IMG/VR virus record: IMGVR_UViG_3300037780_000074 | Strand: one strand, 5' to 3' | DNA length: 60,569 bases | Origin: a virus | Shown here: positions 4,761-54,158 of the stretch, piece by piece | Numbering within the stretch: position 1 is the first letter of the stretch | How the letters are laid out: every line of letters begins with the position of its first letter | Translations under genes and position numbers: made by a program | The notes under the pieces: generated by a model | The model's input: only the letters and a program-made list of their open reading frames with translations | The model's database searches: none | Told to the model about the DNA's origin: nothing

Positions 4761-4795
4761 CCCTGCTAGTTCTCTTTAGCGGGGTTATCTTTTTT
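4761..4795 (+). terminator. Hairpin plus T-tract between convergent genes
   Basis: ccctgcta/tagcgggg forms an 8-bp stem (one G-U) followed by ttatctttttt. It overlaps the last codons of the minus-strand channel gene. Confidence 0.5.
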
Positions 4796-5533
4796 AATTC
4801 TTTCTAAATAGCCTACACTTATTAAGCCTGTAGGTAGTGCAACTACTCCAATCCCCAGTAGTGAAATAATGCCACTAACAAGTTTTCCCATTGGGGTTAT
4901 AGGGTATATGTCACCATAACCAACTGTTGTGAGAGTAGCGACAGACCACCACATAGATACTAACACATTAGAAAAAACTTCTGGTTGAGCTGGATTTTCA
5001 ATATAATACATCAGAAAACCGCTAATGAATATCATAAAGAAAGTTAAAATAAGAGTGGAGATCAATTCATTTTTCTTATCAATTATGATTTCTTTAATTA
5101 GTAAGAGTGATTTCATATACCTGTTAAGTTTAAGTATCCTAAAAAATTTAAATATTCTTAGTATTCTTATAAACCTAAAATCAACTCTTAACAAAAAGGG
5201 TAGCAAAAAGGGGAGTAATGCTAGCAAGTCAATTATTCCATAAAATGAAAAAACAAACTTTAATATTGATTTGAATTTGCTACTAGCTGGATGAGTTAAA
5301 TCAGAAATATAAACCCTCAAACAGTATTCAAAAACAAATATTGTCATTATTGACTTACTTAGTAAATCAATATATTGTCTGTATTCAGCATAAATATCAT
5401 TAATAGACTCTATAATTAAAAGGATAATACTTATAATTATTAGTATAAATATTAGAAGGTTAAATATACTATTTTTACTCTCATCTTGATAGGCTATTAG
5501 ATTAAAAATCGCCTTTTTCAACATATCCTCCAA
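4766..5533 (-). CDS. Voltage-sensor-containing (6TM, Kv-type) potassium channel
   Basis: Selectivity filter TLTTVGYGD. S4-like helix RFIRILRIFKFFRILKLNR with a basic residue at every third position. About six hydrophobic segments. Oriented opposite to the flanking genes. Confidence 0.85.
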   Translation of the reverse strand: MEDMLKKAIFNLIAYQDESKNSIFNLLIFILIIISIILLIIESINDIYAEYRQYIDLLSKSIMTIFVFEYCLRVYISDLTHPASSKFKSILKFVFSFYGIIDLLALLPFLLPFLLRVDFRFIRILRIFKFFRILKLNRYMKSLLLIKEIIIDKKNELISTLILTFFMIFISGFLMYYIENPAQPEVFSNVLVSMWWSVATLTTVGYGDIYPITPMGKLVSGIISLLGIGVVALPTGLISVGYLERIKKDNPAKEN

Positions 5534-8493: not shown

Positions 8494-8567
8494 AGCGTGG
8501 TGGAGTAAATGGTTACCTCACTTGTCTCATAAGCAAGAGATTACAGGTTCGAGTCCTGTCCACGCTA
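8494..8567 (+). tRNA. tRNA with CAT anticodon (elongator Met or Ile2-type)
   Basis: Folded by hand. Acceptor agcgtgg/ccacgct, D-arm gagt..cctc with GG in the loop, anticodon arm cttgt-ctCATaa-gcaag, T-arm acagg-ttcgagt-cctgt, discriminator A. Confidence 0.85.
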
Positions 8568-8641
8568 CAAAGTCATCTTAGAACAAACCAATAGAGGCAA
8601 CACTATGAAATAAGATAACTGAAAACAATACAATGTTGCAA

Positions 8642-9817: not shown

Positions 9818-10105
9818 ATGACGGTAACATTTAACGAACAAATACTAACCTGTTCACCTGATAATAAGATGGTTATAGATACTGACGGACCAGCCGGAAA
9901 TGTGTTCTGGTTAATGTCTATTGCTAGCAAGTTAGGTAAAAGGTTAGGGCTCAACACAGGGGAAATAGTGAGCCAAATGCAAGAGAGTGACTACCCTCAT
10001 GCAATAGAGGTATTCAATGAACACTTCAGCGAGTATGTGATACTGGAATCACAATACGAAAACAATCTAGGCATGCAGCAAAAAGGAAAGGGGGTGAGTC
10101 AATGA
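9818..10105 (+). CDS. Hypothetical protein (first gene after the control region)
   Basis: ORF of 95 aa. Confidence 0.55.
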   Translation: MTVTFNEQILTCSPDNKMVIDTDGPAGNVFWLMSIASKLGKRLGLNTGEIVSQMQESDYPHAIEVFNEHFSEYVILESQYENNLGMQQKGKGVSQ

Positions 10106-10557
10106 ATTATTTTAGAAAGTACAAGCTTGTAGTTGAGGAAACTACAGAGTATGCTCAAAAGAAGTACAATGCTTCTCACTTTATTTTCAACAAGGCTAAA
10201 GATATAATTGGAACAGATATCAATGTTCGTGAGCACATGCTATGTTTCTTCCTCGATAGTCAATGTAATTTAACAGGTTATTCAACAATATCAATAGGTA
10301 TGGAAGAATTATGCTCAATCTCATTAAAGCAATTAGCCACTCTGGCGTTTCTATCCACTTCAACTAGAGTAGTGCTATTGCACAACCATCCAAGTGGTTC
10401 AAATAAACCAAGTGATTCAGATAAATCTGTAACTAGAGAGGTTAAAAAAAGTTTGGCAATGCTAGATATTAAGCTCTTAGACCACCTTGTAATTACTAAG
10501 GATAGTTACTATTCAATGCACGATGAAGGAGAATTATATGAGGAGGCGAACCAATGA
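10102..10557 (+). CDS. RadC-like JAB/MPN-domain protein
   Basis: VVLLHNHPSGSNKPSDSDKSVT is the HxHPSG...S..D JAMM-type motif of the RadC/DUF2466 family. Confidence 0.8.
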   Translation: MNYFRKYKLVVEETTEYAQKKYNASHFIFNKAKDIIGTDINVREHMLCFFLDSQCNLTGYSTISIGMEELCSISLKQLATLAFLSTSTRVVLLHNHPSGSNKPSDSDKSVTREVKKSLAMLDIKLLDHLVITKDSYYSMHDEGELYEEANQ

Positions 10558-10928
10558 ACTACAACACAGTAAAGCTCACAGACATGGAAGTAGACATTGT
10601 AGTTGAGTGGAAACATAACGAGTTTAATATCACTAAGGTTGAAGACTTTAAAAACTCAGCTCCTTTTCTTTGCGAAAATCTAGATCATTCAGCATTAGAA
10701 AGATTCGCTCCAAAGCATGAGCCAGGTGACCAAGAGGCATGGGAAAATGAAATGCTAGTAGCATTCCATCAACTATCTCATTATGAGCAATGCGAATTGA
10801 TGTTAGAAATATTGACTGACCCAGATACTTTTTACGATGCAATCTACGAGCAGATACAAATCAGTGAAAGCGATTATAAGGATATAATAGCTGATATAAG
10901 ATACGATTCAATGAGGGAGGAAGCATAA
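10554..10928 (+). CDS. Highly acidic small protein (candidate DNA mimic)
   Basis: Counted 29 D+E against 9 K+R in 124 aa. It lies between the RadC-like and methyltransferase genes, with ATGA/TAATG coupling. Confidence 0.6.
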   Translation: MNYNTVKLTDMEVDIVVEWKHNEFNITKVEDFKNSAPFLCENLDHSALERFAPKHEPGDQEAWENEMLVAFHQLSHYEQCELMLEILTDPDTFYDAIYEQIQISESDYKDIIADIRYDSMREEA

Positions 10929-12421
10929 TGTTTAATGATGAATTCTTCCCAACTCCAAAGGAAGTAATTGAGAAGATGGTTCTTGAAGCAGATCTAAATA
11001 AAGAACACTACATTTTAGACCCATCAGCAGGGAAAGGAGATATACTAGAATATATAAAGTCAGACTTTACCACATTCGGTAACAACTACAATTACCTTGA
11101 AGATAGAAAACTATACGGAATTGAGTTAAATCAAGACTTAGCTACTATCCTAAAAGAAAAAGAAGTAAGGGTGTTAGCGGATGACTTCTTAGAATATGAA
11201 CCATCTATGAGTTTTGATAGGATACTAATGAACCCACCTTTTTCAAATGGAGATGAACATTTATTGAAAGCATGGGAAATATTAGATTCAGGGAAAATAG
11301 TTTGTCTTCTCAATGCAGAGACTATTAAAAATCCATATACAAAGAAGCGAAAATTATTATTAGAAATCATATCTAAAAACGGATATGCAAAGGAAATGGG
11401 TCAGTGTTTCAAAACTGCAGAAAGGAAAACCAATGTAGAAGTTGTTATGGTGGTATTGGAAAAAACATCAGGAAGTAGATTTGAGTTTGATATTGAATAC
11501 GATAAAGAGAAAAACACTCAAATCAATTCAGAAGTGCTTAATAATCAGATAGCTACCAATGATGCTATTGGGAACATAGTTAAGTATTACCAATTAAGTA
11601 GAGATGCAGGTATTGAACTTGTTAAGGCGATGGATAAATTTATTTATTACTCTGACCCTCTAAAAAGTGGGCACTATATGTATGGGCTCGATGAGATAAT
11701 GAAAGACTTCAATAATAACAGCAATACAAAAAGACATAATAAGCTAATGAGTATGTTAAAAAAGGAAGTCTGGGAAAAAATCCTTGACCAAGATGACTTG
11801 AAAAAAGTAATGAGCTCAAGTGTAAGGGAAACTCTAAATAAATTCATTCAGCAGAACTCATCAATGGATATTACTGAAAAGAATATAAAAAGAGTGATAT
11901 ATGAGTTAATCTCAAACAGAGAATCAATCTATTATCAAACTATAACTTCAGTATTTGAAACAATGACTTCATTTCACAAGGACAATAAAGTACACGTTGA
12001 GGGATGGAAAACAAATTCTGCTTATAAAGTAAATAAAAGGATTATTCTACCCTATGGGATAGATTATAATGATTGGGGAAGTTGGAATATTAACTATAGA
12101 GGTGGTAATAGACCAGCTGTTTCAGATATTGATTTAGCTATATCTATGATCGATGGTAAAGACGTAAATGAGATTGATAAAATATATGACAGCATATATC
12201 AACAGTTTAAAGTAATCGAAACCCATGGCTATAAAATGGGCCACACTAATAAATGTGAATCGGAATATTTCAATATCAAATTCTACAAAAAAGGAACACT
12301 CCATCTGCAGTTCAAAGATGACAAGCTTTGGGAGTTATTCAATGTAACCGCTGCTCAAGGTAAGAACTGGATAGGAACAGAAGATCATGAAGAATACAAA
12401 CAACTAATACAGGGGGATTAA
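10928..12421 (+). CDS. Orphan N6-adenine DNA methyltransferase with a long C-terminal domain (DUF4942-like)
   Basis: FFPTPKEVIEKM, motif I LDPSAGKGDIL and motif IV ILMNPPFS. No adjacent restriction endonuclease is recognisable. Confidence 0.8.
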   Translation: MFNDEFFPTPKEVIEKMVLEADLNKEHYILDPSAGKGDILEYIKSDFTTFGNNYNYLEDRKLYGIELNQDLATILKEKEVRVLADDFLEYEPSMSFDRILMNPPFSNGDEHLLKAWEILDSGKIVCLLNAETIKNPYTKKRKLLLEIISKNGYAKEMGQCFKTAERKTNVEVVMVVLEKTSGSRFEFDIEYDKEKNTQINSEVLNNQIATNDAIGNIVKYYQLSRDAGIELVKAMDKFIYYSDPLKSGHYMYGLDEIMKDFNNNSNTKRHNKLMSMLKKEVWEKILDQDDLKKVMSSSVRETLNKFIQQNSSMDITEKNIKRVIYELISNRESIYYQTITSVFETMTSFHKDNKVHVEGWKTNSAYKVNKRIILPYGIDYNDWGSWNINYRGGNRPAVSDIDLAISMIDGKDVNEIDKIYDSIYQQFKVIETHGYKMGHTNKCESEYFNIKFYKKGTLHLQFKDDKLWELFNVTAAQGKNWIGTEDHEEYKQLIQGD

Positions 12422-18812: not shown

Positions 18813-19026
18813 AGACATTGGAATTATATTATTTATGGTGCTATTAGTGTTAAGTGTTATATTTTTCAGCAGTTATATAGTATTGCCAAGCAACTGGATA
18901 ACTGCAATAGGATTACCTGAAATTGAATTGAATATAGTTACATTGATACTAACTCCATTAGTAGGCATTAGCGCTTTTATAATTGTAGGTAGCAAACAAA
19001 TTGAGCAAAAGAATGAGACTAACTAA
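18805..19026 (+). CDS. Small membrane protein
   Basis: The ATG at 18805 lies inside the junction repeat. Two hydrophobic segments (IILFMVLLVLSVIFF, LILTPLVGISAFIIV). Confidence 0.5.
   Translation: MIKDIGIILFMVLLVLSVIFFSSYIVLPSNWITAIGLPEIELNIVTLILTPLVGISAFIIVGSKQIEQKNETN
18995..19016 (+). repeat. Gene-junction repeat aacaaattgagcaaaagaATGa, copy 2
   Basis: Exact copy. ATG at 19013. Confidence 0.9.
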
Positions 19027-19384
19027 AAAGCAGAGAGAAGAATTAAAACAAAAGTATGGTGGTAGGTGTGCTTATTGCGGATGTGAACTACCAAAGAGAT
19101 GGCACGCAGACCATATTGAGCCTGTTAGGCGTTTAGGCGGTAGAATAGAGTTTCCAGAAAGACACTACATGGAAAATTTAAATCCATCATGTCCTAGCTG
19201 TAACATCCAAAAACATTCAGAAACATTAGAAAACTTCAGATGGAATATAGAACATTTTATTCATAGTCTTAACTCCTATCACAATCAATACAAGTTTGCT
19301 AAGAAATTCGGACTAGTAAAGGAAACAGGGAATAAAGTAGTTTTCTACTTCGAGCAATTTGAGCAAAATAATCAGGAGAATTGA
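19013..19384 (+). CDS. HNH endonuclease
   Basis: CAYCGCEL ... WHADHIEPV ... NLNPSCPSCNIQKH (Cys pairs plus H-N-H residues). Confidence 0.8.
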   Translation: MRLTKKQREELKQKYGGRCAYCGCELPKRWHADHIEPVRRLGGRIEFPERHYMENLNPSCPSCNIQKHSETLENFRWNIEHFIHSLNSYHNQYKFAKKFGLVKETGNKVVFYFEQFEQNNQEN

Positions 19385-24585: not shown

Positions 24586-26024
24586 TAATCTTCCTCAGAT
24601 ACTTGTGTAACTGCAATCACATCAGATATTAATGCTTCTAATTCAGTAGTATCTAGATCTGCATTTATCTCGAGAATACTCTTTTTGATTTCATCAAAGG
24701 ACTTTCCTTTTCCTAATTGGTCAATAATTGGTTGTACTACTTCTTGAAACTTCTCTGCCATTTCATCTTGGATATCATCCTTAGCAGAGAAACTATTAGT
24801 AGGTTCTGGTGGAGTATTGCTAGTACTAGAAATTTCAAACTCTGTATCTTGCAATGAGTATGTTTTCTTGATATACTCTTCAGTAAATTTAACGCCTAGA
24901 CCATTAAGCATTGTATCAACTTCAGCTTGTGCTTTCATTTCAACTGTTTGACCTTTTGCTGTTAAATCGAACATTGGAATTTCAACTTCATCAACTTTTC
25001 CGTAGTTCATGTATACCATCTTAGTGATAATATCGTTCATGTTTCCTATTACTAGCTTTGCATCTGAATCACGAATGATATTGATAGATTGAATTATTTG
25101 CTCCCTGTTGCCTAATGCACCTGCAACACTATCAACTGCAGATGAGTGGGAAAGAATTGCTTTTGATATTTGCTTGTCACAAACTTCAATAAAACCTTTG
25201 TAAATTTCACTTGAAGCCTGATTGTTTCCTGCAATCACTAAAACATCATCCGAACCAGGTATCGCTCCTGTGCCATCTTGAAATAAGCCATCTAATGCAG
25301 TAACCATTTTATCGATTTGAGTATCACTTGGTTCAGTTGTTGGGTCATCTTTAGCGTTTTTACCTATCTGACCTAATAGATGAATCATTCCATATTTTTC
25401 TACAAACTTTGCAAAGAACTTTAAACCTCCTTTCTTAAATGTAACTGGCCAATAGCACTTTTTAAATACTGCATTCCCATAAGGATTAAGATAAGTCGGA
25501 TAGTTCTGAACTACTGTAAATTTATTTTTGGAAAGCAACTTACCTTCAGCTCCGTAGTTCTTTCCAATAAATCGTAGCCTATTATTAGTATCAAATTTGA
25601 ACCAGTGAGGAGGCTTCCCAACAACACTTGACACATAGACAAAACCATTAGAATCTTCGAGCCAAATTAATTCCATAACAGAATAACCGTAAGCAATAGC
25701 ATCAAGCATTTCTCCAATTATCTTTTCCATATCCCATTTCTTAATCACATTGTTTACAAATTGGAATATATCAGCTCTTGTTTTACTTGGTCTTAATTCC
25801 CATTCCATAGACTTGACATTGTCTTTTCTTAATTGGAATGCTGCGGAAACTTGGTCGTCTATATCCAAATCATAGTATACAGAAATATCTAGACCTAGAC
25901 CTTTAAGAACTTTGTCAGGATTGGGGAGTGAGCTAAGGACAGAGCTATATATCTGCATATCTTTTGCATCAGCATCTACTCCAAACAGTTCTTTCATTAT
26001 TATTTCTTTATTTATATCACCCAT
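24585..26024 (-). CDS. Portal protein (Mu gp29/DUF935-like)
   Basis: 479 aa, located between TerL and the MuF-like gene. Acidic C-terminus. Confidence 0.7.
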   Translation of the reverse strand: MGDINKEIIMKELFGVDADAKDMQIYSSVLSSLPNPDKVLKGLGLDISVYYDLDIDDQVSAAFQLRKDNVKSMEWELRPSKTRADIFQFVNNVIKKWDMEKIIGEMLDAIAYGYSVMELIWLEDSNGFVYVSSVVGKPPHWFKFDTNNRLRFIGKNYGAEGKLLSKNKFTVVQNYPTYLNPYGNAVFKKCYWPVTFKKGGLKFFAKFVEKYGMIHLLGQIGKNAKDDPTTEPSDTQIDKMVTALDGLFQDGTGAIPGSDDVLVIAGNNQASSEIYKGFIEVCDKQISKAILSHSSAVDSVAGALGNREQIIQSINIIRDSDAKLVIGNMNDIITKMVYMNYGKVDEVEIPMFDLTAKGQTVEMKAQAEVDTMLNGLGVKFTEEYIKKTYSLQDTEFEISSTSNTPPEPTNSFSAKDDIQDEMAEKFQEVVQPIIDQLGKGKSFDEIKKSILEINADLDTTELEALISDVIAVTQVSEED

Positions 26025-27460
26025 TACATGAACCCTTCAGTTATTGATTTTTTATTTATTTTCTTAGGAGTGCTGTAGCGTTTAGCCCCTTTGTTCATCG
26101 TCTTAATTATCTTCATTAAAATTTGCATTGCCATTGTATAAACATCAACTTGGTCATCAAACTTACCACTCGGAAATCTTGCTAACTCATTTATGAAATC
26201 AGTTAGCCAACTCATGCCTTTAGGTAAATAAACTGATTTATTCTCCAATGGACTTGATACCATATTAGCTCTAACTACTTTGTTCATCGCTTTAACACCC
26301 TTAATACTAATCTTATGTCTGTAGGGCATAACTTGTATTAATGATTGACCACTTCCTGCATCCTCAACATACACTTTATTTGGTTCCCAAAATTCATACA
26401 ATCGTACAACATTTCTTTCAAGAGCATTAAAGTTTATCTTAGCACGATAAACATCAAGCAGATAGTAGTTATCTTTATCAATACCAACAGTCAAACAAAC
26501 TGAGTAATCATTAGTTTCACTTTCTTTGAAAGCCGTATCCCATACTTGAATAACGAAGTCTAACTTCTTTCTCATTTCAATTGGTTTCTCATTGTAATAT
26601 TGCCAATTGCTTGGGTCAAATATTATTGAGTTTGTTAGAACAGGCTTTTGTTGATAAAGTGAAGTGAAAAAGCTACCTTGTATTTCTTTCTGTTCCTGAA
26701 TATATTCTTCATCAAATCTTTGTGGCCATAGTACATCGCCTTTCTTCCTACCTAATACATCATCCTCTTCTGCAATAGCAGGGAAATTTACAACTTCCCA
26801 ACTGTCAGGATATGTTTCTTGTAAGTAACCTGCTATATCATCGTAATGCCATCTAGTCATTACAACTATCACTATCCCATTGGGAGACAACCTAGAAAAT
26901 GCTGTAGATGCAAACCAATTTTTCATTGACTCCCTATAAGTAGGTGAGAAAGCTTCTTCATGGTTTTTTATCAAATCATCAATAATTAAAAGGTCTGCAC
27001 CTTTACCAGTTATTGAACCTTTCCAGCCATGAGCCTCAACTCCACCACTATGCCTTGATATTTCCCAACTCGACTTTGATTTAGTGCTTTTGCTTACATC
27101 TAATCCAAAGAGATTTTTACCATGATCTAAAAATAAATCCCTTGTCCATCCACCATATTTATTAGCTAAATCGGATGAGTGCATAGTTATAAAAACTTTC
27201 TTATCTGGGTTGTTACCCAAATACCACACAGGGAAATATTTGCAAATCAATTCTGACTTCCCATGTCTTGGAGGCATATTAATTATAATACGTCTCTTTT
27301 TTTTTGCAACAGCATCCAGTAAAATGTTATTTACATACAATAAATGCTTTGCTAAATGGTACTTCCCACCTGACATATAATATGCCATTGAGATAGGAGT
27401 ACCAGTAGCAAACTCTACACTATTAGTCACGGATGTTGTCAAGATTCTGCATTCCCTCAA
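26024..27460 (-). CDS. terL: Terminase large subunit
   Basis: Walker A-like MPPRHGKSE, Walker B LLIIDDL, and C-terminal nuclease motif FDDQVDVYTMA. Confidence 0.85.
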   Translation of the reverse strand: MRECRILTTSVTNSVEFATGTPISMAYYMSGGKYHLAKHLLYVNNILLDAVAKKKRRIIINMPPRHGKSELICKYFPVWYLGNNPDKKVFITMHSSDLANKYGGWTRDLFLDHGKNLFGLDVSKSTKSKSSWEISRHSGGVEAHGWKGSITGKGADLLIIDDLIKNHEEAFSPTYRESMKNWFASTAFSRLSPNGIVIVVMTRWHYDDIAGYLQETYPDSWEVVNFPAIAEEDDVLGRKKGDVLWPQRFDEEYIQEQKEIQGSFFTSLYQQKPVLTNSIIFDPSNWQYYNEKPIEMRKKLDFVIQVWDTAFKESETNDYSVCLTVGIDKDNYYLLDVYRAKINFNALERNVVRLYEFWEPNKVYVEDAGSGQSLIQVMPYRHKISIKGVKAMNKVVRANMVSSPLENKSVYLPKGMSWLTDFINELARFPSGKFDDQVDVYTMAMQILMKIIKTMNKGAKRYSTPKKINKKSITEGFM

Positions 27461-28052
27461 TTTCTTGTAACAACTTATTGAAGTTTTCTCTCATCTTATC
27501 ATTTTCAGCTATGACATTGCCAATACGTCTTTTCGCATCTTCATCTTCACCAAATCTATTCTCAATTATCTCACCTGCTAGCCCTAGAATATTCCTTTCT
27601 GTATTAATAAGGTTAATCATAAACTTAGATGAGTCTTTAGTCATTTCGAACAATTCAGCAACTGTCAAATCTTCTAATGCACTCAAATCATATTTCATGT
27701 TGCCCTCTTCATCCTTAGTATACAACTTATTATGTAGTGCAAGTTTTGCTAAGGAGATGAGTTTTTGATATGACTGTAGCTCTAATAAATGTGATTTCTC
27801 TCGTGATTCTAAAGCCTTTTGCTTTGCTTCCATAGTTGCTTGCAGTTCAATCTTTTGCAACTCAACTATCCTTTCTCTCCATTGATATTTATCACGCCAA
27901 TCATACAAATGAGTTTTTGATTTGAGTCCAAGCTTATCTTTCAGCATATCCATGTTTCGTTTGGGGCCCAAGTCACGAAATATTCCCCATGCCTCATAAG
28001 CTTTGTCTGACTCATCATCTCTTCTATGCAGTATGCTATTTTCGTCTATCAT
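27423..28052 (-). CDS. terS: Putative terminase small subunit
   Basis: Lies directly upstream of terL and overlaps it. Helical, with an HTH-like N-terminus (KAYEAWGIFRDLGPKRNMDML). Confidence 0.5.
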   Translation of the reverse strand: MIDENSILHRRDDESDKAYEAWGIFRDLGPKRNMDMLKDKLGLKSKTHLYDWRDKYQWRERIVELQKIELQATMEAKQKALESREKSHLLELQSYQKLISLAKLALHNKLYTKDEEGNMKYDLSALEDLTVAELFEMTKDSSKFMINLINTERNILGLAGEIIENRFGEDEDAKRRIGNVIAENDKMRENFNKLLQEIEGMQNLDNIRD

Positions 28053-28554
28053 CAGAACCCCATGCTTTACTGAATTTGTGTTCTTTGATTATTTTCTCTT
28101 TAGGTATACCCTCAGAAATTCCAAGCTTTACAACTTCCTCTTCTTCCATTTGTAGTCTTCTCATTATCTCTTGAACAGGGACTTTATCTTTTATCATGTC
28201 ACCTACAATCTTAGACATCTTAAATACACCATGTGTACCCTTTGCTCTGTTGTGCCTTATGGTACTCATCTGTTGAGATACTATGTCAGTTGGATTTGTA
28301 GTTGTTACAGGGACTCTACCACCATCTCTTTCACGGATTCGTGGGTCATCTGAAGCTAACCACCTATGGTAACCATCAACTATTTCATTATTCGGGTTTC
28401 TAATTACTGGTTGCGTCCACCCATCTTCTAGAATTGATATTACTAATAATTCAAAATCATACTTAGTCATAGAGTTTGGATTGTAGTTGTTTGGTTTAAT
28501 TAACTCTCTATCAATCCATTCCACATTATCTATTGGTTGTTTAAACTTGCTCAT
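28036..28554 (-). CDS. ParB-like nuclease-domain protein (IbrB/DndB-like)
   Basis: NPNSM ... ILEDGWTQPVI ... IVDGYHRW ... IRHNRAKGTH. Confidence 0.7.
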   Translation of the reverse strand: MSKFKQPIDNVEWIDRELIKPNNYNPNSMTKYDFELLVISILEDGWTQPVIRNPNNEIVDGYHRWLASDDPRIRERDGGRVPVTTTNPTDIVSQQMSTIRHNRAKGTHGVFKMSKIVGDMIKDKVPVQEIMRRLQMEEEEVVKLGISEGIPKEKIIKEHKFSKAWGSDDRRK

Positions 28555-29686
28555 TCACAACCTCCATTTTCTTTCCTTTTTTAAATTTCATTGTAGCTGA
28601 TTTACGTTTTTTAAAATCTCCTCTGATTGCACAGTCACATAAAAACTTCCAGCTACAACCAGTTTTATAATGATTGTTTGCATCAGGTATCTTGTCATTT
28701 GTGTCTTTGTAATGTAGTTTGATAGAGGCATTAATTCCTTTTTGTACAACAGAGCGATAAGGTTCTTCGTATCCAGTCATAATTACTTTATAATATTCTT
28801 CCCACGTTTTGTAAGCAGGAGGTAATACTTTCCCAGTATATAAACCGACATTGGAATATCTAAGAGCTGTTCGTGCCCCTCTAACTCTATCTTGCATTTT
28901 CTCCCATAGGTCTGAATCAATTAATTGATATTCAGCTATACCTCTTAGAGGTTCTTCACCGAAAGCATTACTCACCCTTTGTTTCAAGAATCGATTGTGG
29001 TAACCAGGTAACTTATCTAATGCATCGTAAAACTTGTTATAATCCCATTCGAACTTCTGAATTGCTGACCAAACATCTTCACTTGTCCAATCATAAATTG
29101 GATGAGCTATATGGATATTACCATATCGATGAGAAATATAGTTGTCTGCTTTCTTTCTCAGAACAGCCATTCTTCTTCTTAAGCTTTCTTGAGCTCGTAT
29201 ACCTGTCAAAAAACAAACATTACCATTGTAGTCTTGATACATTTCATCACAGAATTGAGGCATAGTTTGGCCAGGAACAAATCTCCTATGCAGAGTGATT
29301 GCATTGTCAGGCAAATTCCTACACCATAACTGTTTCTTTGCAGGTTCCCATGGGTACCACCATGGCTCGTTGTTACTACAAGCATTTCTATGTCGAATAG
29401 GAATACAGTACCATTTAAAGTCTAAGTCTGCATTAGAAGATACTCTTTCTACGTATTCAACTGTTTGTGAAGTTATTGCCTCTTCGTCGATATATATTAC
29501 CTCAAGTGGTAGCTTTTTTAATTCTCTAGCTACTTCTAAAGCAAGGTTTAGAGCAATAGTAGAATCTTTACCACCTGAGAATGAAACAACAACTTTGTCA
29601 AAACGATTGAAACAGTCTTTAATCCTTTGCTTTGCTTCATCTAAAACATTTGTATTATATTCTATTCTATCGTGTGTTCTACTCAT
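28541..29686 (-). CDS. PP-loop ATPase of the PAPS-reductase family with a C-terminal extension (IbrA/DUF3440-like)
   Basis: PP-loop VVVSFSGGKDST. 381 aa with a conserved-looking Trp/Cys-rich C-terminal half. Confidence 0.7.
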   Translation of the reverse strand: MSRTHDRIEYNTNVLDEAKQRIKDCFNRFDKVVVSFSGGKDSTIALNLALEVARELKKLPLEVIYIDEEAITSQTVEYVERVSSNADLDFKWYCIPIRHRNACSNNEPWWYPWEPAKKQLWCRNLPDNAITLHRRFVPGQTMPQFCDEMYQDYNGNVCFLTGIRAQESLRRRMAVLRKKADNYISHRYGNIHIAHPIYDWTSEDVWSAIQKFEWDYNKFYDALDKLPGYHNRFLKQRVSNAFGEEPLRGIAEYQLIDSDLWEKMQDRVRGARTALRYSNVGLYTGKVLPPAYKTWEEYYKVIMTGYEEPYRSVVQKGINASIKLHYKDTNDKIPDANNHYKTGCSWKFLCDCAIRGDFKKRKSATMKFKKGKKMEVVNEQV

Positions 29687-30501
29687 TAGCCCACCTCATC
29701 TAAAAGTATCTTTGCTTCATCGAAATAATAAGAGGCCTCTATTACTGTTTCTTTTTCTATATTCAGCACCTCTTTCCATGTCTCAATTCGAGAATCATTT
29801 TCCTTGTCATTTGGATGCAAATCTCTAAACGCCCAAGGATGTGTACCTAAATAGAAAGCACGAGGCATTTCATAAAATGGAGCTATCGGTAAATTATAAT
29901 ATCTGATTGCAGCAATTACTTCCTCGTGAGACCATTCGGAAATCGGAGAATAACGAGTAATACCCTTTTTGTTAGTATATATGTTCTCACCATTTCTCCC
30001 TACATAATTACTATCTGCTTTGCGTCTTCCTAATAGGATAATATCCAGTTTCTTCTCATTGAAATATATATCTTGCGAGCGTTGCTGAACGAACTTGTAC
30101 CATCTAGAAGATATTTGATTAGTAGCAGGAAAAAGAAAGTGCTCATTCTCTACTAACCAGTTTAAGTCATGCCCTGTATTTATTTTGGAAATACCTTTTG
30201 GAGCGTTTTTAGCTAACCAATCCATATACAGTTTATATTCAAGATTAGTATAACCAATGACACTATCAGTTATACCAGCTTGTTCAGCAACTAATCTAAG
30301 TGCGACTGAATCCTTACCACCACTCCAAGCAATTGCACAACTTTTCCCTTTTGTGATTCTTAAGATGTCACTGCAGGTTCTGTCAATGAGTTTAGTTATA
30401 TGATTGTGACTTACATATTCTTCAATATTATTAAATACGTGTCTAAATAAATCCTCATTATGAGAATTGAATGCTCTGTTTTTTAAGACTCTGTTATTCA
30501 T
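29686..30501 (-). CDS. Second PAPS-reductase-family PP-loop ATPase
   Basis: PP-loop CAIAWSGGKDSVAL. 271 aa. Confidence 0.7.
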   Translation of the reverse strand: MNNRVLKNRAFNSHNEDLFRHVFNNIEEYVSHNHITKLIDRTCSDILRITKGKSCAIAWSGGKDSVALRLVAEQAGITDSVIGYTNLEYKLYMDWLAKNAPKGISKINTGHDLNWLVENEHFLFPATNQISSRWYKFVQQRSQDIYFNEKKLDIILLGRRKADSNYVGRNGENIYTNKKGITRYSPISEWSHEEVIAAIRYYNLPIAPFYEMPRAFYLGTHPWAFRDLHPNDKENDSRIETWKEVLNIEKETVIEASYYFDEAKILLDEVG

Positions 30502-30953
30502 TTAGAAACCTCCAAAGTCTTTTTATATCCAACTGCAGGTAAGGAATTAAAAAAATCATGTACATTAGGCATCTTGTTAAGCTTATCTGCTAATAGTTTT
30601 GCATGATATTTTAACTTTGAAATTGCTAATGGGCATTTAGTAGACCTTTGCTTATCTACTGAATGCACTTTAAACATTGAAACTTTCCCATTTTTAAACT
30701 TTGGTAGTAGTGGGTACATTTGACAATCTAATGGCTTATATCCACCATCACAAGTAGCCGTATCCTTAGCCTTGCATTTTGCTAAACGCCCACCCTTGTA
30801 TTCTTTTCCTAATTCCAAATGTTTAATCTCAACATCAGAAACATTTTTTAATTCCTCAGGATATAAAATGACTCCACTTACTCTTGCCGTTTTGGTGCAA
30901 CATCTAAAACCGCATCCAGCACTAGGGCAATGATCTATTAGTCCTTTACTCAT
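30498..30953 (-). CDS. YkgJ/UPF0153-like Cys-rich (putative Fe-S or Zn) protein
   Basis: CPSAGCGFRCC plus YKPLDCQMYPLLP fit the CxxCxxCC family. The ATG at 30953 is preferred over the track start at 30998. Confidence 0.55.
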   Translation of the reverse strand: MSKGLIDHCPSAGCGFRCCTKTARVSGVILYPEELKNVSDVEIKHLELGKEYKGGRLAKCKAKDTATCDGGYKPLDCQMYPLLPKFKNGKVSMFKVHSVDKQRSTKCPLAISKLKYHAKLLADKLNKMPNVHDFFNSLPAVGYKKTLEVSK

Positions 30954-30954
30954 T

Positions 30955-31701
30955 TTACACCGTCCTGATATCTTTAAGGTTCTTAGCTGAAACACCATTT
31001 ACAATAGTTCGGTTTATCATAGGATGTTCCTCATCAACAGGACCATAATCGGAAGTAGGGTGAAAAGCGACAACTCTCATCTCACTATCTTTAGTTTCAA
31101 AAGAATGGGTACCGGTTAAAGCATATATTCCATCATGCTGTATTTTCTTTCCTTCTTCATGAATGATGAAAACTTGACCCGGTATTAAATCTATCTTACC
31201 CCATGGAGTAATACATTTACCTTTACCAGATACTATCATTCCAACTCTTATGTCAGGATGAGTGTGTTGAGTTTGGGAAATGTTTTTAGGAAAATATAAA
31301 AGATTGAAACATGGGTCACCTTTCTTCACTGGTGGTATTAAAAGAGAGTCTGTACAACCATCAATATATTTAAGTCTTCCTTTTCGTTCTAGCTTACCAC
31401 CAATATGGAAAAAGCCATTATACTTTATGCTTTGTATTACAATACCATTACCACCAATGACTTCCACTTTATTAGGTACAGAAGCGTACATTTCTGGTTG
31501 TAATGTAAATTCTCCTTCATTAGTTTTAATCACAGTCTCTCCGCTATGATTAAAAATGAAAAACGTGTCTCCCTCTGAAGTTAATGCTAATGACTTGCTC
31601 TCAACATAGCCAAATAACTTAGTTGGATTAATATTGTCTGAATCATTAAACAGTAAACCTGTTTTAATTAACTCAAACGGACTGTAGCTTGGATTCTTCA
31701 T
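30955..31701 (-). CDS. Cupin-fold protein
   Basis: Metal-site-like QHTHPDIRVGMIVSGKG and PGQVFIIHEEG...H. 248 aa, possibly a bicupin. Confidence 0.55.
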   Translation of the reverse strand: MKNPSYSPFELIKTGLLFNDSDNINPTKLFGYVESKSLALTSEGDTFFIFNHSGETVIKTNEGEFTLQPEMYASVPNKVEVIGGNGIVIQSIKYNGFFHIGGKLERKGRLKYIDGCTDSLLIPPVKKGDPCFNLLYFPKNISQTQHTHPDIRVGMIVSGKGKCITPWGKIDLIPGQVFIIHEEGKKIQHDGIYALTGTHSFETKDSEMRVVAFHPTSDYGPVDEEHPMINRTIVNGVSAKNLKDIRTV

Positions 31702-32368
31702 AATGCTCCATAATTTTAATTAAACATTCAGGAGTGCTATTGGAATTGATAACACTCTTAGCTCTATTTATAATATCTGTGATTTTAGCTCTGTCTTTTT
31801 CTTTCATTAAGCAACTGAAAAGAACATTGTCATCTTCAGTTATCTTCAATTTGTTATCCTTGTCTCTATCGTCAGGGTATGCTTTTTTCTCTTCTACTTC
31901 ATCAGGAAAGCTCATGTCAGGTATCGAAGTTTCTTTGGATAGTTCAATCATTGAATTATCTACAGTATTCATATCATTTATTTGCTTGAATATGGCCAAG
32001 TGTTCCTGATTATTTCCTAACTCTACAATCTCTGTAGGTGAAAACAATTCTGCTAACTTATCCTTATTCCATTTACCTGCTATGTTTTGATTTAACCTGT
32101 AGTTAAGTCTCTTAAACTGTTCTTCATTCAGTTTTTTAGTTGGTCTCTTAATGTCGACCTCTTTATCTCCTCCCTCAATCAGACATTCTAGAGATTTATG
32201 ACCACCACATATAGTATAGTCTTTATTAGTAACTATAACACCAGCAAACCCAAACTCATCAAAGCTCTCTTTCAAGTATTTGACGTTTTCTTCATCCGTA
32301 TCTCTAGGATTATCTTTCCATGGTTTAAGCTTGTCAATGCTTACTCTTTCAGTTACCCACTTAATCAT
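31673..32368 (-). CDS. Second ParB-like N-terminal-domain protein
   Basis: IDKLKPWKDNPRD ... LKESFDEFGFAGVIVT ... ICGGHKSLECL. Confidence 0.6.
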   Translation of the reverse strand: MIKWVTERVSIDKLKPWKDNPRDTDEENVKYLKESFDEFGFAGVIVTNKDYTICGGHKSLECLIEGGDKEVDIKRPTKKLNEEQFKRLNYRLNQNIAGKWNKDKLAELFSPTEIVELGNNQEHLAIFKQINDMNTVDNSMIELSKETSIPDMSFPDEVEEKKAYPDDRDKDNKLKITEDDNVLFSCLMKEKDRAKITDIINRAKSVINSNSTPECLIKIMEHYEESKLQSV

Positions 32369-32537
32369 TTCTCACCTTTTATTTGTTGAACTGTAGCAAT
32401 GGTTCACAAATTAGTAAGCAATAATTGCAATGTTCTTTACAGTCTGCATAGCAGATTGCATTTCTATTGTGTTGGCAGTCACCGAAGTGTTTTGAATTAT
32501 GTAAATCAGAAGTTGCACATATCAAAGAATAAACGGT
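32369..32537. promoter_or_regulatory. Divergent control region between the leftward packaging and rightward capsid operons
   Basis: 169-nt ORF-free gap between divergent genes. Palindrome tctgcatagcaga (32443-32455) and repeated ttgca pentamers. Confidence 0.4.
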
Positions 32538-51894: not shown

Positions 51895-53028
51895 TTATTT
51901 TGAGCTGTTTCGATTGAATTTAATTACCTCTTCAATATCCTCAGCACTCATTTTGTTCAAGTAATGTTTTGATTGTGTTTGAATACTATGACCAATTAAC
52001 GAACGTACGACATTATCATTTAATCTATAATCGTTCATCATCTCATTTTCTACTAATTTTCTAATTGCGTGGAATTTAACTTCTTCAACATTTTGAATGT
52101 TGAGCATTTTTCTATAGTTGTTTATATACACTCCCATTGAACCTGATGTTTTGAATCCTAGCAAAGAATTCTCACTCATGAAATATTTACTTTTAAATTC
52201 AAGTATCTCATCTAACAACTCTTTTAGACTTGGGTTGATTGAATAAGGGAATTCTCTCCACTTTTCATTTTTACCATGTATTAAGAGTTTGTTCTTCTGA
52301 ATATGCCAATCTTCCATTTTGAAAACTTCATCCCTTCTCATACCTGTAATACCAATCAACCTTAATGTGTACATTAATCTTAATGCTGCCATTTTACTCT
52401 TTGGCTTGGTGCATTCATTTATATAATTATTAAGTGTCTCTATGTAGTGATTTAATTGGTCTCTTGAGCATATAGTAAATTTGTAATTAGTGTTCTTGAT
52501 TTTCAACCAAGGCTTAATAGGGTTTGATAGTATAATGTCTGACTCTATACCAAAGTTGAAAACTGTTCTTAACTGGGTAAGTGAATTGTTGATAGTGGAG
52601 TCAGAATATCCCTCTTTGAATTTTAAATCTTTTACTCTGGAATCAATATATTTTGTTATCTCAAAAATATCGTTTAGGTAAAAGTCATTATTCTGCATTA
52701 GTAGCTTAATACCATTTATAAATGTAACTTTAGATATTTTTTTTAACCTCGAGAGTTTCAACTCTTTATATTGCAAGAATAATTCAGAGAAAGTATCAAT
52801 TCTATTAGAGTTAATCCCATTCTCTCTTTCAAAATATTCTCTGACTCTCTTGTCCAGAACTTGAATAGCAAACTCTTTGTTTGTTTTGTTCCAGGGTAAA
52901 TTTTTTATTGACTTCCTGTCACCAAATATATATGTATGTATATAGCCGTCCCTCTCAAAACAATATACTCCTTTCTTATAGTCAGGATGGTCCCATCGTT
53001 TTCCTTTTCTCTTTCTAGTCTTTCCCAT
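51895..53028 (-). CDS. int: Tyrosine integrase
   Basis: TGMRRDE (box I Arg), HAIRKLV (H-x-x-R), LIGHSIQTQSKHYL (His and the catalytic Tyr). Confidence 0.85.
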   Translation of the reverse strand: MGKTRKRKGKRWDHPDYKKGVYCFERDGYIHTYIFGDRKSIKNLPWNKTNKEFAIQVLDKRVREYFERENGINSNRIDTFSELFLQYKELKLSRLKKISKVTFINGIKLLMQNNDFYLNDIFEITKYIDSRVKDLKFKEGYSDSTINNSLTQLRTVFNFGIESDIILSNPIKPWLKIKNTNYKFTICSRDQLNHYIETLNNYINECTKPKSKMAALRLMYTLRLIGITGMRRDEVFKMEDWHIQKNKLLIHGKNEKWREFPYSINPSLKELLDEILEFKSKYFMSENSLLGFKTSGSMGVYINNYRKMLNIQNVEEVKFHAIRKLVENEMMNDYRLNDNVVRSLIGHSIQTQSKHYLNKMSAEDIEEVIKFNRNSSK

Positions 53029-53425
53029 CTTTAGTTTTTTCTTTCAGTTTCTTAGCAAGTAGTTTAATGTATTCATGAGTTTCTTCATCTTCAGCTACAT
53101 TACTCTCATCTGTAAAAAAAGATAATAAAGTGTTAAGTGTGTCCGGAAACCAACTAAAGTCATTTAATAATTGAGGAACTGCAAAGTGTCTTTCTATATA
53201 TGAAAGTGTCGGAAATATAATTTCATAATCTAGTGAGCACTCATATAATGTTTGAAGTTCTAATAAGCAGAATTTATAAAAATTCTCAGTGTGTTCGAAA
53301 AGTGCATTGTATTCAATAATAGCCTGTTCTGCAGTTATATCTTCATTAGAAAACACAACACGTTCAGCAATTCTTAAGCATCTAACTCTAAGTCTGAACT
53401 CAATTTTTCTTTCCAGCTGGAGCAT
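53015..53425 (-). CDS. Hypothetical protein in the lysogeny module
   Basis: 136-aa ORF between the repressor and the integrase. Confidence 0.5.
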   Translation of the reverse strand: MLQLERKIEFRLRVRCLRIAERVVFSNEDITAEQAIIEYNALFEHTENFYKFCLLELQTLYECSLDYEIIFPTLSYIERHFAVPQLLNDFSWFPDTLNTLLSFFTDESNVAEDEETHEYIKLLAKKLKEKTKDGKD

Positions 53426-54158
53426 AGTCCTTTATAACCTTTTTTACTATTCCAAAAATTATAAAATCTTCCATATCACCTAACTTTATATCTTTCACAC
53501 CAACGGAATCAGACTTTAGGATAATACTCCCATTCTTTTGATGAACAAGGTGCTTAACGATCGGCATTCCATTCAGAGCACCAACAATGGTGCAATCATA
53601 GTTTGGCTTATTAGTACACACCTCAAATATTATTATGTCACCAGAATTAACTCCTGCATCTTGCATAGAGTCACCATTAACATAGATTGCATCATGAGAC
53701 TTTTCATCAATACTCATGCCTAATGCTAAAGGCATATATGTAGTAGGTAAATCATTAAGGTCTGTTAATGTACCTGTAGCAGCACTTGCACTCATAATGT
53801 GAAGCTTAATGTTTGCGAGCATACCTTGAAATTCTTTTGGTATTCTATATACCTCTTCTTTGTATTTTTCATGTGTATCTTCTACTCTATTATTGAATAT
53901 GTCCTTCTTCTTACCAGAACCTCTAACTGGTAAGTTTTCTAATACGGCTGGTTCACCAACCCCATGAAGATACCATTCAATATTTATACCAGTTTTACTC
54001 AGTCTGTTCAAAGAAGACTTATTAGTATAAACTCTATCAGTATTTAAATATGTATTTAATGTAGATGGAGTCACTCCTAGAGTGTCTGCAAAATGAGTCA
54101 GATTATTATAGTAATCCTCAATGAACTGTCTTAATCTTTCCTGCGGTGTGTCTGCCAT
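53400..54158 (-). CDS. CI/LexA-like repressor (HTH plus S24 peptidase)
   Basis: N-terminal HTH (LTHFADTLGVTPSTLNTYL). C-terminal YVNGDSMQDAGVNSGDIIIFE ... IVKHL (Ser and Lys of the S24 family). Confidence 0.85.
   Translation of the reverse strand: MADTPQERLRQFIEDYYNNLTHFADTLGVTPSTLNTYLNTDRVYTNKSSLNRLSKTGINIEWYLHGVGEPAVLENLPVRGSGKKKDIFNNRVEDTHEKYKEEVYRIPKEFQGMLANIKLHIMSASAATGTLTDLNDLPTTYMPLALGMSIDEKSHDAIYVNGDSMQDAGVNSGDIIIFEVCTNKPNYDCTIVGALNGMPIVKHLVHQKNGSIILKSDSVGVKDIKLGDMEDFIIFGIVKKVIKDYAPAGKKN

Follow-up and report, generated by a model that had tools for sequence, protein, structure and literature searches.

The DNA analyzed here, in the following called the window, is a viral sequence of 60,569 nucleotides (IMG/VR record IMGVR_UViG_3300037780_000074) that carries a cluster of six genes directly ahead of its terminase genes. 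To judge from their sequences, the last two genes of this cluster are orthologues of the named IbrA/IbrB pair. The cluster forms one transcribed and translated unit with the terminase genes and represents an expanded phage form of the IbrA/IbrB module. Its core, an upstream ParB gene followed by IbrA and IbrB, was found again in other viral and prophage loci, nearly always just before terS and terL. Our preferred reading, to which we assign a probability of roughly 40%, is that the cassette modifies nucleic acid by means of a PP-loop enzyme guided by ParB, that its tailoring enzymes can be swapped and that it is expressed with the packaging genes; its chemistry we infer from the domains and the genomic context.

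Layout of the cluster and operon setting

All six open reading frames (ORFs) are located on the minus strand between 28036 and 32368 and are orientated into the same direction (Table 1). A preliminary description of this DNA had reported six co-oriented, coupled genes running into terS and terL, and here the layout, the coordinates and the order of the genes stood. ParB1 and the cupin gene overlap by 29 nt, the Cys-rich and PP-loop2 genes by 4 nt, PP-loop2 and IbrA by 1 nt, IbrA and IbrB by 14 nt, and IbrB and terS by 17 nt. A further overlap of 44 nt between the cupin and the Cys-rich gene (30955-30998) is only apparent. It is an artefact of the longest ORF, since the homologues (P0121-P0126) as well as the gene calls begin at Met16; with this start (30953) the Cys-rich gene begins 1 nt past the cupin stop.

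The same gene order was found again in the related loci L004-L007, L019-L022 and L035. Compared with the relatives in L007 and L004, the proportion of nonsynonymous differences (pN) was 0.08-0.19 and that of synonymous differences (pS) 0.63-0.84 (saturated) in the six genes, just as in terS and terL. All six are real genes under purifying selection.

A terminator scan detected no terminator-like site on the minus strand within the cluster. Upstream of ParB1, a divergent intergenic region separates the leftward operon, consisting of the six genes, the terminase and the portal, from the rightward head/tail operon, and is likely the shared control region of both. Promoter-like matches within this region were not above shuffled expectation, and the counts of the promoter and terminator scans were generally at or below it. 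The host promoters are probably of a non-sigma-70 type.

The IbrA and IbrB proteins

The IbrA-like protein matched PF01507 (1.8e-18, 67.6 bits with a cut-off of 22.5), PF11922 (DUF3440; 5.5e-9, 36.5 bits with a cut-off of 25) and, over its full length, phrog_2302 (6e-86). Its architecture is that of IbrA, namely a PP-loop domain of the phosphoadenosine phosphosulfate (PAPS) reductase type followed by a helical DUF3440 domain, and a co-oriented, overlapping phrog_2159 ParB gene adjoins it. To the annotated IbrA of Escherichia phage PhiR5_2 it showed 29% identity over 98% of the length. The identity to proteins annotated as IbrA or PAPS reductase from E. coli, Streptococcus, Mycobacterium, Fusobacterium and other phages was 27-33% over 82-98% of the length. 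In total, matches were found in 223 GenBank phage records, and 3,593 homologues were present among the protein clusters.

More than 70 positions are invariant in the IbrA family, the PP-loop among them, and the invariant motifs are SGGKDS, DEEA, HRNA and GEEP. Among 45 homologues the only invariant cysteine was C94; C103 was invariant in an alignment of 12 sequences only. Foldseek searches with AlphaFold2 (AF2) models had been proposed in the preliminary description and were carried out for IbrA and for the cupin. The IbrA model (predicted local distance difference test, pLDDT, 84) has a PAPS-reductase-type PP-loop fold, with structural matches confined to the first ~230 residues. Its neighbours in the PDB were the PAPS domain of human FAD synthase (2e-7), adenosine phosphosulfate (APS) and PAPS reductases, yeast FMN adenylyltransferase (FMNAT) and CysD, with TtuA being weaker. 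The helical DUF3440 domain of the model had no structural match. A search of the PDB with the IbrA family profile returned CysD (3e-4) and APS reductase only. CysD, FMNAT and CysH have in common the transfer of an adenylyl group to or from a phosphate or sulfate oxygen.

The IbrB-like protein matched phrog_2159 (7e-57) and, weakly, PF02195 (2e-4). It consists of an N-terminal domain of the ParB/Srx fold, in which the motifs VDGxHR and HNRAxGxH are kept in 46 relatives, and a short C-terminal helical segment, possibly a helix-turn-helix. The PGAP name of the E. coli protein is 'IbrB-like domain-containing protein' and sometimes partition protein. Against TIGR00180, IbrB scored 18.3 with a cut-off of 58.45 and ParB1 gave no match. 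With no parA gene in the cluster and no repeat array nearby, neither protein has the context of a ParB CTPase clamp.

ParB1, bicupin, Cys-rich protein and PP-loop2

ParB1 is a divergent stand-alone protein with a ParB N-terminal domain, an acidic linker behind it and a helical part at the C-terminus. Its PHROG matches ranged from 1e-12 to 2e-18 and included phrog_498 (2e-18), phrog_620 (7e-17) and phrog_930; the ParB domain of PADLOC MTase_II was matched with 8e-10. Of all profiles, those of the ParB domains in phage ParB-methyltransferase fusions fit ParB1 best. PF02195 was matched by 41 of 46 members of the ParB1 family (best E 1.4e-13), though not by the window copy alone. The latter keeps the motif NPR and carries GGHKS in place of the family consensus GHxR.

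The AF2 model of the cupin (pLDDT 95.3) was all-beta. EF2996, YlbA/DUF861, ureidoglycine aminohydrolase, quercetinase and BacB were on top of its Foldseek matches in the PDB, with probability 1.0, E-values of 1e-9 to 1e-7, a TM score of ~0.6 and 11% identity to bicupins of 245-260 aa. In the family alignment H146, H148 and H199 form an invariant site, of which the motif HTHPD provides the HxH part; C116, C131, C163, D114 and D118 were invariant as well. With high confidence the protein is predicted to be a 3-His bicupin with a putative metal site. More than 1,000 homologues were found. A fold search in BFVD gave nothing specific. We also considered a dioxygenase of the TET/JBP (5mYOX) kind and rejected it: PF12851 was not matched at E ≤0.1, the site is HxH...H and not HxD...H, and the top 50 PDB neighbours were all classical cupins or bicupins.

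The Cys-rich protein has seven or eight conserved cysteines in the pattern C-x4-C-x3-CC ... C ... C ... C-x2-YP ... CP. The window protein matched no Pfam family up to E 10 and no PHROG. Its family comprised 158 representative relatives. Among 60 of these, PF03692 (CxxCxxCC) was matched by one (E 0.017) and DUF3109 by five (best E 0.024), which is marginal, and nine close relatives gave marginal matches at best. In an hhalign comparison of the family with E. coli YkgJ the probability was 0.7%, and the CxxC..CC motif alone was aligned. Elsewhere the domain is fused N-terminally to APH kinase, dTMP-kinase-like P-loop, ATP-grasp and GNAT domains (P0133, P0137, P0139, P0161, P0163, P0182). This suggests that it may be a reusable metal- or substrate-binding module for enzymes modifying small molecules or nucleotides.

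PP-loop2 matched PF01507 (4.4e-8, 33.8 bits with a cut-off of 22.5) and phrog_424 (2e-20). According to the family alignment it carries the SGGKDS motif and not a single conserved cysteine. The family is a short form of the PAPS-reductase-family ATP pyrophosphatases. As a lone query in viral contigs, PP-loop2 returned close relatives only.

Five of the six family labels in the preliminary description were therefore confirmed. These were the two ParB-like proteins (phrog_2159 for IbrB, phrog_498/620 and PF02195 at family level for ParB1), the two PAPS-reductase-type PP-loop proteins (PF01507 above the cut-off in both) and the cupin with its metal-site-like motif HTHPD. For the Cys-rich protein, YkgJ is left as a candidate assignment.

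A conserved core upstream of several terminase lineages

The comparative set consisted of 92 viral or prophage loci, 17 of them bicupin-linked and 75 defined by IbrA. The latter were obtained in a search with the IbrA alignment, which yielded 78 further viral loci; IbrA was recognised by hidden Markov model (HMM) labelling in 75. All 17 bicupin-linked loci contained a ParB gene (~200 aa), the bicupin, then nothing, a small ORF or a short PP-loop gene, and finally IbrA and IbrB. Among the 75 IbrA loci the upstream ParB was present in 55, IbrB in 61 and the bicupin in 30. The neighbourhood search proposed in the preliminary description thus showed a recurrent core of ParB ... IbrA-IbrB.

The link to the terminase was analyzed in the 49 loci whose sequence continues downstream for at least 2.5 kb. 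An ORF of at least 350 aa was present within 3.5 kb downstream in 45 of them, with matches to the TerL families phrog_2 (29), phrog_15 (9), phrog_38 (9) and phrog_9 (4); an iterated TerL HMM reached 38 of these 45 ORFs. In five distant bicupin loci that were examined, terS and a TerL of the phrog_2 type follow, whereas the TerL of the window is of the phrog_38 type. Since TerL proteins of at least four PHROG families are found downstream, the core is anchored just upstream of several unrelated packaging lineages.

Such a position might point to a packaging accessory, in which the ParB-like proteins, some of whose relatives are nucleases, and IbrA would aid the terminase at the pac or cos site in the manner of the HNH proteins of cos phages. 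The module lies directly upstream of terS, even overlapping it in the window, and precedes TerL of several families, and 'ParB-like partition nuclease' families are among the PHROGs close to ParB1. However, IbrAB is common without a terminase, both on E. coli islands and, in isolated phages, outside the packaging region, and most phages with the same TerL families presumably do without the module. We know of no role of a PP-loop enzyme in packaging, and consider this explanation very unlikely.

The slot between ParB and IbrA

The content of the slot between the upstream ParB and IbrA was highly variable among phages. Besides the bicupin in 30 of the 75 loci, it held a short PP-loop gene, which as a PP-loop2 orthologue was followed by a class-II glutamine amidotransferase (GATase) in L147, L155 and L158; S-adenosylmethionine (SAM) methyltransferases (L157, L172, L180); small DPPW proteins resembling N6/N4 DNA methyltransferases (L159, L180); a GNAT protein; a short-chain dehydrogenase/reductase (SDR); an aldehyde dehydrogenase together with a mono-cupin; a TctC-type binding protein; and a Na+/solute symporter. 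In L117 a PD-(D/E)XK protein was located between IbrA and IbrB. The cargo is embedded, overlapping its neighbours (e.g. in L144 and L141), and does not form separate transcription units. DxD motifs suggested GT-A-like glycosyltransferases in the slot, but Pfam returned no match to confirm them, and among PDB entries the best E-value was 0.6.

The genes for the symporter, the TctC-type protein or the aldehyde dehydrogenase overlapped both the ParB and the IbrA neighbours (L141 4599-6035; L153 919-2343; L127 2756-3598; L144 4602-6008). For a late phage operon these are odd cargo.

The Cys-rich gene was limited to the clade of the window. It was absent from L004 and L035, although the bicupins of these loci are 83% and 91% identical to that of the window and the flanking genes 72-91%. 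PP-loop2 was present in L004-L007, L016-L018, L035 and ~10 further loci. Across the family PP-loop2 and the bicupin are optional, and the Cys-rich gene is accessory. To speak of one six-gene system, as in the preliminary description, was therefore too strong. The bicupin family occurs mostly outside phages and without IbrAB.

A stricter form of this view is that the true unit is ParB ... IbrA-IbrB, and that the bicupin, the Cys-rich protein and PP-loop2 are independent morons or auxiliary metabolic genes (AMGs) in an insertion hot spot beside the terminase. It concerns composition and is compatible with any of the functional readings. In addition to the loss of the Cys-rich gene between well conserved flanks and the wide differences in slot content, the PP-loop2 of L035 is only 55% identical to that of the window while its neighbours reach 84-91%, and the bicupin may stand on either side of IbrA-IbrB, following IbrB in L120, L123, L146, L148 and L156. 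Independent insertion does not account well for the bicupin accompanying IbrAB in 30 of 75 divergent loci and in 17 others, for the ParB gene directly upstream of the bicupin in 17 of 17 loci, for cargo that overlaps its neighbours without promoters or terminators of its own, or for equal purifying selection on all six genes. We consider it somewhat unlikely.

Comparison with known systems

The closest known system is IbrA/IbrB of the E. coli ECOR-9 island (COG3969-type), with the same two-domain IbrA and an IbrB gene overlapping the 3' end of IbrA. The E. coli pair is stand-alone, whereas that of the window is preceded by four further coupled genes and joined to the terminase operon.

The pairing of a ParB-fold protein with a PAPS-reductase-family PP-loop ATP pyrophosphatase also resembles DndB/DndC, SspD and BrxP of DNA phosphorothioation. 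The PADLOC profiles for DndC, BrxP and SspD matched the window IbrA weakly (5e-10 to 5e-4). Both likenesses, to IbrB/IbrA and to DndB/DndC, had been recognised in the preliminary description, the first in agreement with phrog_2302, phrog_2159 and PF11922. Membership in a Dnd-like system, however, was not supported. TIGR03183 gave 29.5 bits with a cut-off of 290.4 and was matched at positions 129-201 of 447 only. No DndC chain was among the top 50 structural neighbours of IbrA, the nearest folds being FMNAT, APS/PAPS reductase and CysD, and IbrA has DUF3440 where DndC has its own C-terminal region. DndC requires a [4Fe-4S] cluster (PMC12839542), and IbrA lacks the set of cysteines for it. As already noted in the preliminary description, DndA, DndD and DndE are not adjacent; none of the six proteins matched DndA/IscS, DndD/SspC, DndE or SspB in PADLOC, Pfam or NCBIfam.

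The C-terminal catalytic Cys motif of CysH/PAPS reductase is ECGLH. A similar motif was present in neither PP-loop protein, and PP-loop2 is devoid of conserved cysteines altogether. The models for CysH, PAPS and APS reductase scored far below their cut-offs, with 27.6 against 165 bits for TIGR00434, 29.1 against 254 for TIGR02057 and 21.8 against 235 for TIGR02055. IbrA moreover is paired with a ParB-like gene in 61 of 75 loci. That both genes are viral cysH copies boosting the sulfate reduction of the host, i.e. sulfur-assimilation AMGs, is hence hardly credible, even though the PHROG label reads 'phosphoadenosine phosphosulfate reductase' and counts of cysH AMGs have included phage PF01507 proteins, a DUF3440 clade among them (bioRxiv 10.1101/2021.01.05.425418; PMC12323421).

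Several precedents combine a ParB-fold protein with a DNA-modifying enzyme, namely DndB/DndC and DpdB/DpdA (PMC12839542). The phage thymine dioxygenases of the 5mYOX/TET-JBP type depend on ParB and co-occur with terminases (PNAS 2026, PMC13229309), and in the ParB/5mYOX neighbourhoods GATases, kinases, methyltransferases and terminases abound (PMC13229309). In contrast, the enzyme of the window is a classical bicupin with HxH...H, not a 2-oxoglutarate/Fe(II) double-stranded beta-helix with HxD...H, and neither a 5-hydroxymethyldeoxyuridine kinase nor an aGPT-Pplase is present.

In the phage ParB-DNA methyltransferase fusions (phrog_498; PADLOC MTase_II) the N-terminal ParB domains are the ones that ParB1 matches best. 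The ParB of the window stands alone and is followed by the bicupin instead of a methyltransferase. The DPPW methyltransferase-like gene downstream of ParB in L159 and L180 recalls these fusions. Finally, pairs of an asparagine-synthetase-like or Gat-QueC-like PP-loop protein with a GATase are mirrored by the PP-loop2 orthologue and class-II GATase of L147, L155 and L158, an analogy which suggests that adenylation might be followed by amidation there. The window differs from the AsnB/QueC pairs in that it has no GATase and its PP-loop2 belongs to the PAPS-reductase clade.

Proposed function and competing explanations

In the mechanism that we propose, IbrB, a putative NTP-binding protein of the ParB/Srx fold that ends in a short helical segment, would load on DNA and recruit IbrA. 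As a PP-loop ATP pyrophosphatase of the PAPS-reductase/FMN-adenylyltransferase/CysD/DndC clade, IbrA would spend ATP on adenylylating a nucleic-acid oxygen, either of the backbone phosphate, as in its own clade, or of a base carbonyl, as in tRNA PP-loop enzymes. The AMP could then be displaced by a nucleophile. The genes between the upstream ParB and IbrA would encode interchangeable enzymes for tailoring or donor supply; in the window these would be the bicupin, the Cys-rich protein and the Cys-less PP-loop2, in other phages a GATase, methyltransferases, GNAT proteins or dehydrogenases. ParB1 may serve the bicupin as phage ParBs serve thymine dioxygenases. As a result, phage DNA would receive a covalent mark after its replication, shortly before packaging or in its course, and would presumably evade host restriction.

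We prefer this modification reading because no other accounts as well for the linkage to the terminase, for cargo of the DNA methyltransferase, GATase and GNAT kinds and for the precedents that join ParB to an enzyme. It is supported by the conserved core, the tight coupling, the purifying selection on all six genes, the link to the terminase and the embedded cargo. A role in nucleic-acid modification, in line with the modification of phage DNA put forward in the preliminary description, is thus plausible on account of the terminase-adjacent core, the DNA-modification-type cargo and the ParB precedents; modification of the Dnd kind is not supported.

A number of observations count against it. 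IbrA has a single invariant cysteine and no 4Fe-4S motif, and neither its sequence nor its fold places it nearer to anything else than to small-molecule adenylyltransferases (FMNAT, CysD). No parS-like or other repeat array was found near the cluster, with pairs at chance level at most. The metabolic slot cargo (symporter, TctC, aldehyde dehydrogenase, SDR) fits small-molecule metabolism or moron insertion better. The bicupin family occurs with ~50% identity in many bacterial genomes, 74 of 80 bacterial genome loci (Maricaulis, Lewinella, Pyrinomonadaceae, cyanobacteria) had no adjoining IbrAB, and the bicupin was absent from 50,697 GenBank phage records. In P. syringae-type contigs (L001-L003, 8001-8708) a 52% identical bicupin is part of a nonribosomal peptide synthetase (NRPS) cluster. 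IbrAB was also found away from packaging genes: in the lysogeny-replacement region of S. thermophilus phage CHPC1062, next to antirepressors in Escherichia phage PhiR5_2, next to two ParB/Srx genes and RecT in a Microcystis phage, and as a stand-alone pair in E. coli islands. The sole published phenotype of IbrAB is regulatory, in that the pair activates eib genes of prophages (Sandt et al. 2002, as cited in PMC10434257). Taken together, the modification reading does not easily explain the transporters, the dehydrogenases and the stand-alone E. coli copies.

In the NRPS cluster the bicupin gene sits between a free-standing AMP-binding (adenylation) enzyme and a TauD oxygenase. This copy hints that the bicupin family may act on an amino-acid-like small molecule. 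The bicupin neighbourhoods in Maricaulis, Neolewinella, Pyrinomonadaceae and Fischerella shared no common operon pointing to a substrate.

IbrAB was present in 1,930 of 5,426 complete E. coli genomes (36%), and its neighbours in the islands were Zorya II, PerC-family regulators and insertion sequence (IS) elements. On two E. coli chromosomes (L188 3078-9139, L189 5936-8139) a PerC-family regulator followed IbrA-IbrB, and in one strain the pair was located directly after a type II Zorya system.

These copies bear on a regulatory explanation, in which IbrB would be a DNA-bound switch of the ParB/KorB/VirB type that together with IbrA turns on the late operon or prophage genes, the other four genes being passengers. 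No genetic phenotype other than this eib activation by ibrAB has been recorded, and it could itself be secondary to DNA modification. The module heads the late operon and adjoins the divergent control region, the usual place of late activators; in the phages of S. thermophilus, Microcystis and E. coli, however, the pair is not upstream of late genes. The stand-alone occurrence in 36% of the complete E. coli genomes and the PerC-family regulator following the pair in the islands would suit a switch. A highly constrained enzyme with over 70 invariant positions including the PP-loop would be unusual for a transcription co-factor, and the enzyme cargo closely embedded between ParB and IbrA also counts against it. 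On balance we regard this explanation as unlikely.

Alternatively, a ParB/Srx kinase or NTPase (like SerK or sulfiredoxin) and IbrA as adenylyltransferase might make an AMP- or ADP-linked metabolite from a substrate imported or tailored by the cargo enzymes, the product serving in counter-defence, defence or host manipulation. The nearest solved folds of IbrA (FAD synthase/FMNAT, APS/PAPS reductase, CysD) would agree with this, as would the slot content with its transporters (SSF, TctC), aldehyde dehydrogenase, SDR, GNAT and GATase, the bicupin family being shared with bacterial metabolism including the NRPS cluster, and the fusions of the Cys-rich domain to small-molecule kinases, ATP-grasp and GNAT. 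The ParB fold can bind ATP, GTP or CTP and catalyse small-molecule reactions (PMC12704722). E. coli copies adjoin Zorya II, and a 2026 preprint (PANGU) lists operon clusters of a nucleoid-associated protein (NAP) and a PAPS reductase, one with ParBc and Arc in addition, as candidate defence variants. The IbrB family nevertheless keeps a ParB-type N-domain and the C-terminal helical segment, and sometimes the name partition protein from PGAP. A metabolite pathway would hardly account for a strong positional link to the terminase that spans several TerL families, and DNA methyltransferase-like cargo occupies the same slot. We therefore take such a pathway to be improbable.

In the literature covered, IbrA/IbrB appeared either as a 'co-activator of prophage gene expression', after the eib phenotype, or as a viral cysH. 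A literature search returned no other biochemical or functional work on the pair, nor did it turn up the bicupin-linked cassette.

Phage genome and host

The window matches the JGI metagenome contig Ga0394804_000318. A helicase gene of the DEAD/SNF2 type is cut by the window start (1-756 and 59786-60569). In the JGI record this gene is uninterrupted, so that the window is a rotated form of a complete and probably circular genome of 60,569 bp. The phage is temperate, as it carries an integrase and an S24 repressor (Table 1). A prophage in a 1.0-Mb contig of a Chlorobiota metagenome-assembled genome (MAG; L035) has the bicupin with 91% identity, and another relative (56%) belongs to a MAG of the Ignavibacteriaceae. 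The Chlorobiota/Ignavibacteriaceae group thus probably includes the host. A nucleotide search with 12 kb around the cluster against the 50,697 GenBank phage records gave no match. Downstream of terL a Mu-type portal gene and a Mu-F-like gene follow.

Table 1. Positions of the cluster genes and further features of the window
Feature	Position	Strand	Remarks
ParB1	31673-32368	-	231 aa; leads operon
Cupin (bicupin)	30955-31701	-	248 aa
Cys-rich protein	30498-30953	-	151 aa counted from Met16 (longest ORF 30498-30998, 166 aa)
PP-loop2	29686-30501	-	271 aa
IbrA-like (IbrA orthologue, by sequence)	28541-29686	-	381 aa
IbrB-like (IbrB orthologue, by sequence)	28036-28554	-	172 aa
terS	27423-28052	-	phrog_6299 at 1.5e-10
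terL	26024-27460	-	phrog_38 at 3e-106; Terminase_6N/6C
Divergent intergenic region	32369-32537	.	169 bp, without ORF of at least 90 aa
Integrase	51895-53028		temperate-phage marker
S24 repressor	53400-54158		temperate-phage marker
DnaB	1647-3062		

The gene at 57404, previously described as an SMC-like ATPase, encodes a protein of 428 aa without Pfam match (57404-58690, plus strand). It overlaps by 4 nt with the next gene, which encodes a NA37/YejK-like nucleoid-associated protein of 361 aa (58687-59772, plus strand), and is not a DndD or SMC partner of the cluster. The two genes (57404-59772) resemble the two-gene 'PANGU' defence operons of a NAP sensor and an effector described in the 2026 preprint.

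A single tRNA gene with the anticodon CAT is present at 8494-8568 (plus strand), possibly for tRNA-Met or for the lysidine-dependent tRNA-Ile2. The latter would need a PP-loop enzyme of the TilS type; nothing was found that connects the tRNA with the cluster. The early region contains a DUF4942 protein of 497 aa, possibly methyltransferase-associated, a RadC-like protein and an HNH endonuclease (10928-12421, 10102-10557 and 19013-19384, respectively, all plus strand). A small ion-channel-like gene (~116 aa; PF00520/PF07885, Ion_trans) lies in this region on the other strand at ~4766-5116 (minus strand).

Significance of the IbrA/IbrB cassette

IbrA/IbrB is among the commonest gene pairs of phages and prophages without a biochemical function, and is routinely miscounted as a viral cysH gene of sulfur assimilation. 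The pair as such was already known, and the expanded, bicupin-linked form is new. Also new is that the pair usually belongs to a larger cassette upstream of the terminase in unrelated packaging systems, with a hypervariable enzyme slot.

It is a tentative suggestion, and one that may well prove wrong, that IbrA and IbrB could be the core of an unrecognised class of ParB-guided, adenylylation-dependent covalent DNA modification (base or backbone), which would be installed by phages at packaging and diversified by swaps of tailoring or donor-supply enzymes (bicupin, a second PP-loop protein with or without a GATase, methyltransferases, GNAT, dehydrogenases) and even of transporters. Phages of E. 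coli, S. thermophilus and Flavobacterium are tractable systems for this hypothesis. Should DNA not be the substrate, a widespread annotation would be corrected and a new phage-encoded pathway revealed. If DNA is the substrate, the cassette would provide a new enzyme class for phage anti-restriction chemistry and for DNA-modification tools. On the suggestion made above, the same chemistry would operate in phages by the thousand and in roughly one out of three E. coli genomes, and the old phenotype of prophage gene activation would be an epigenetic effect.

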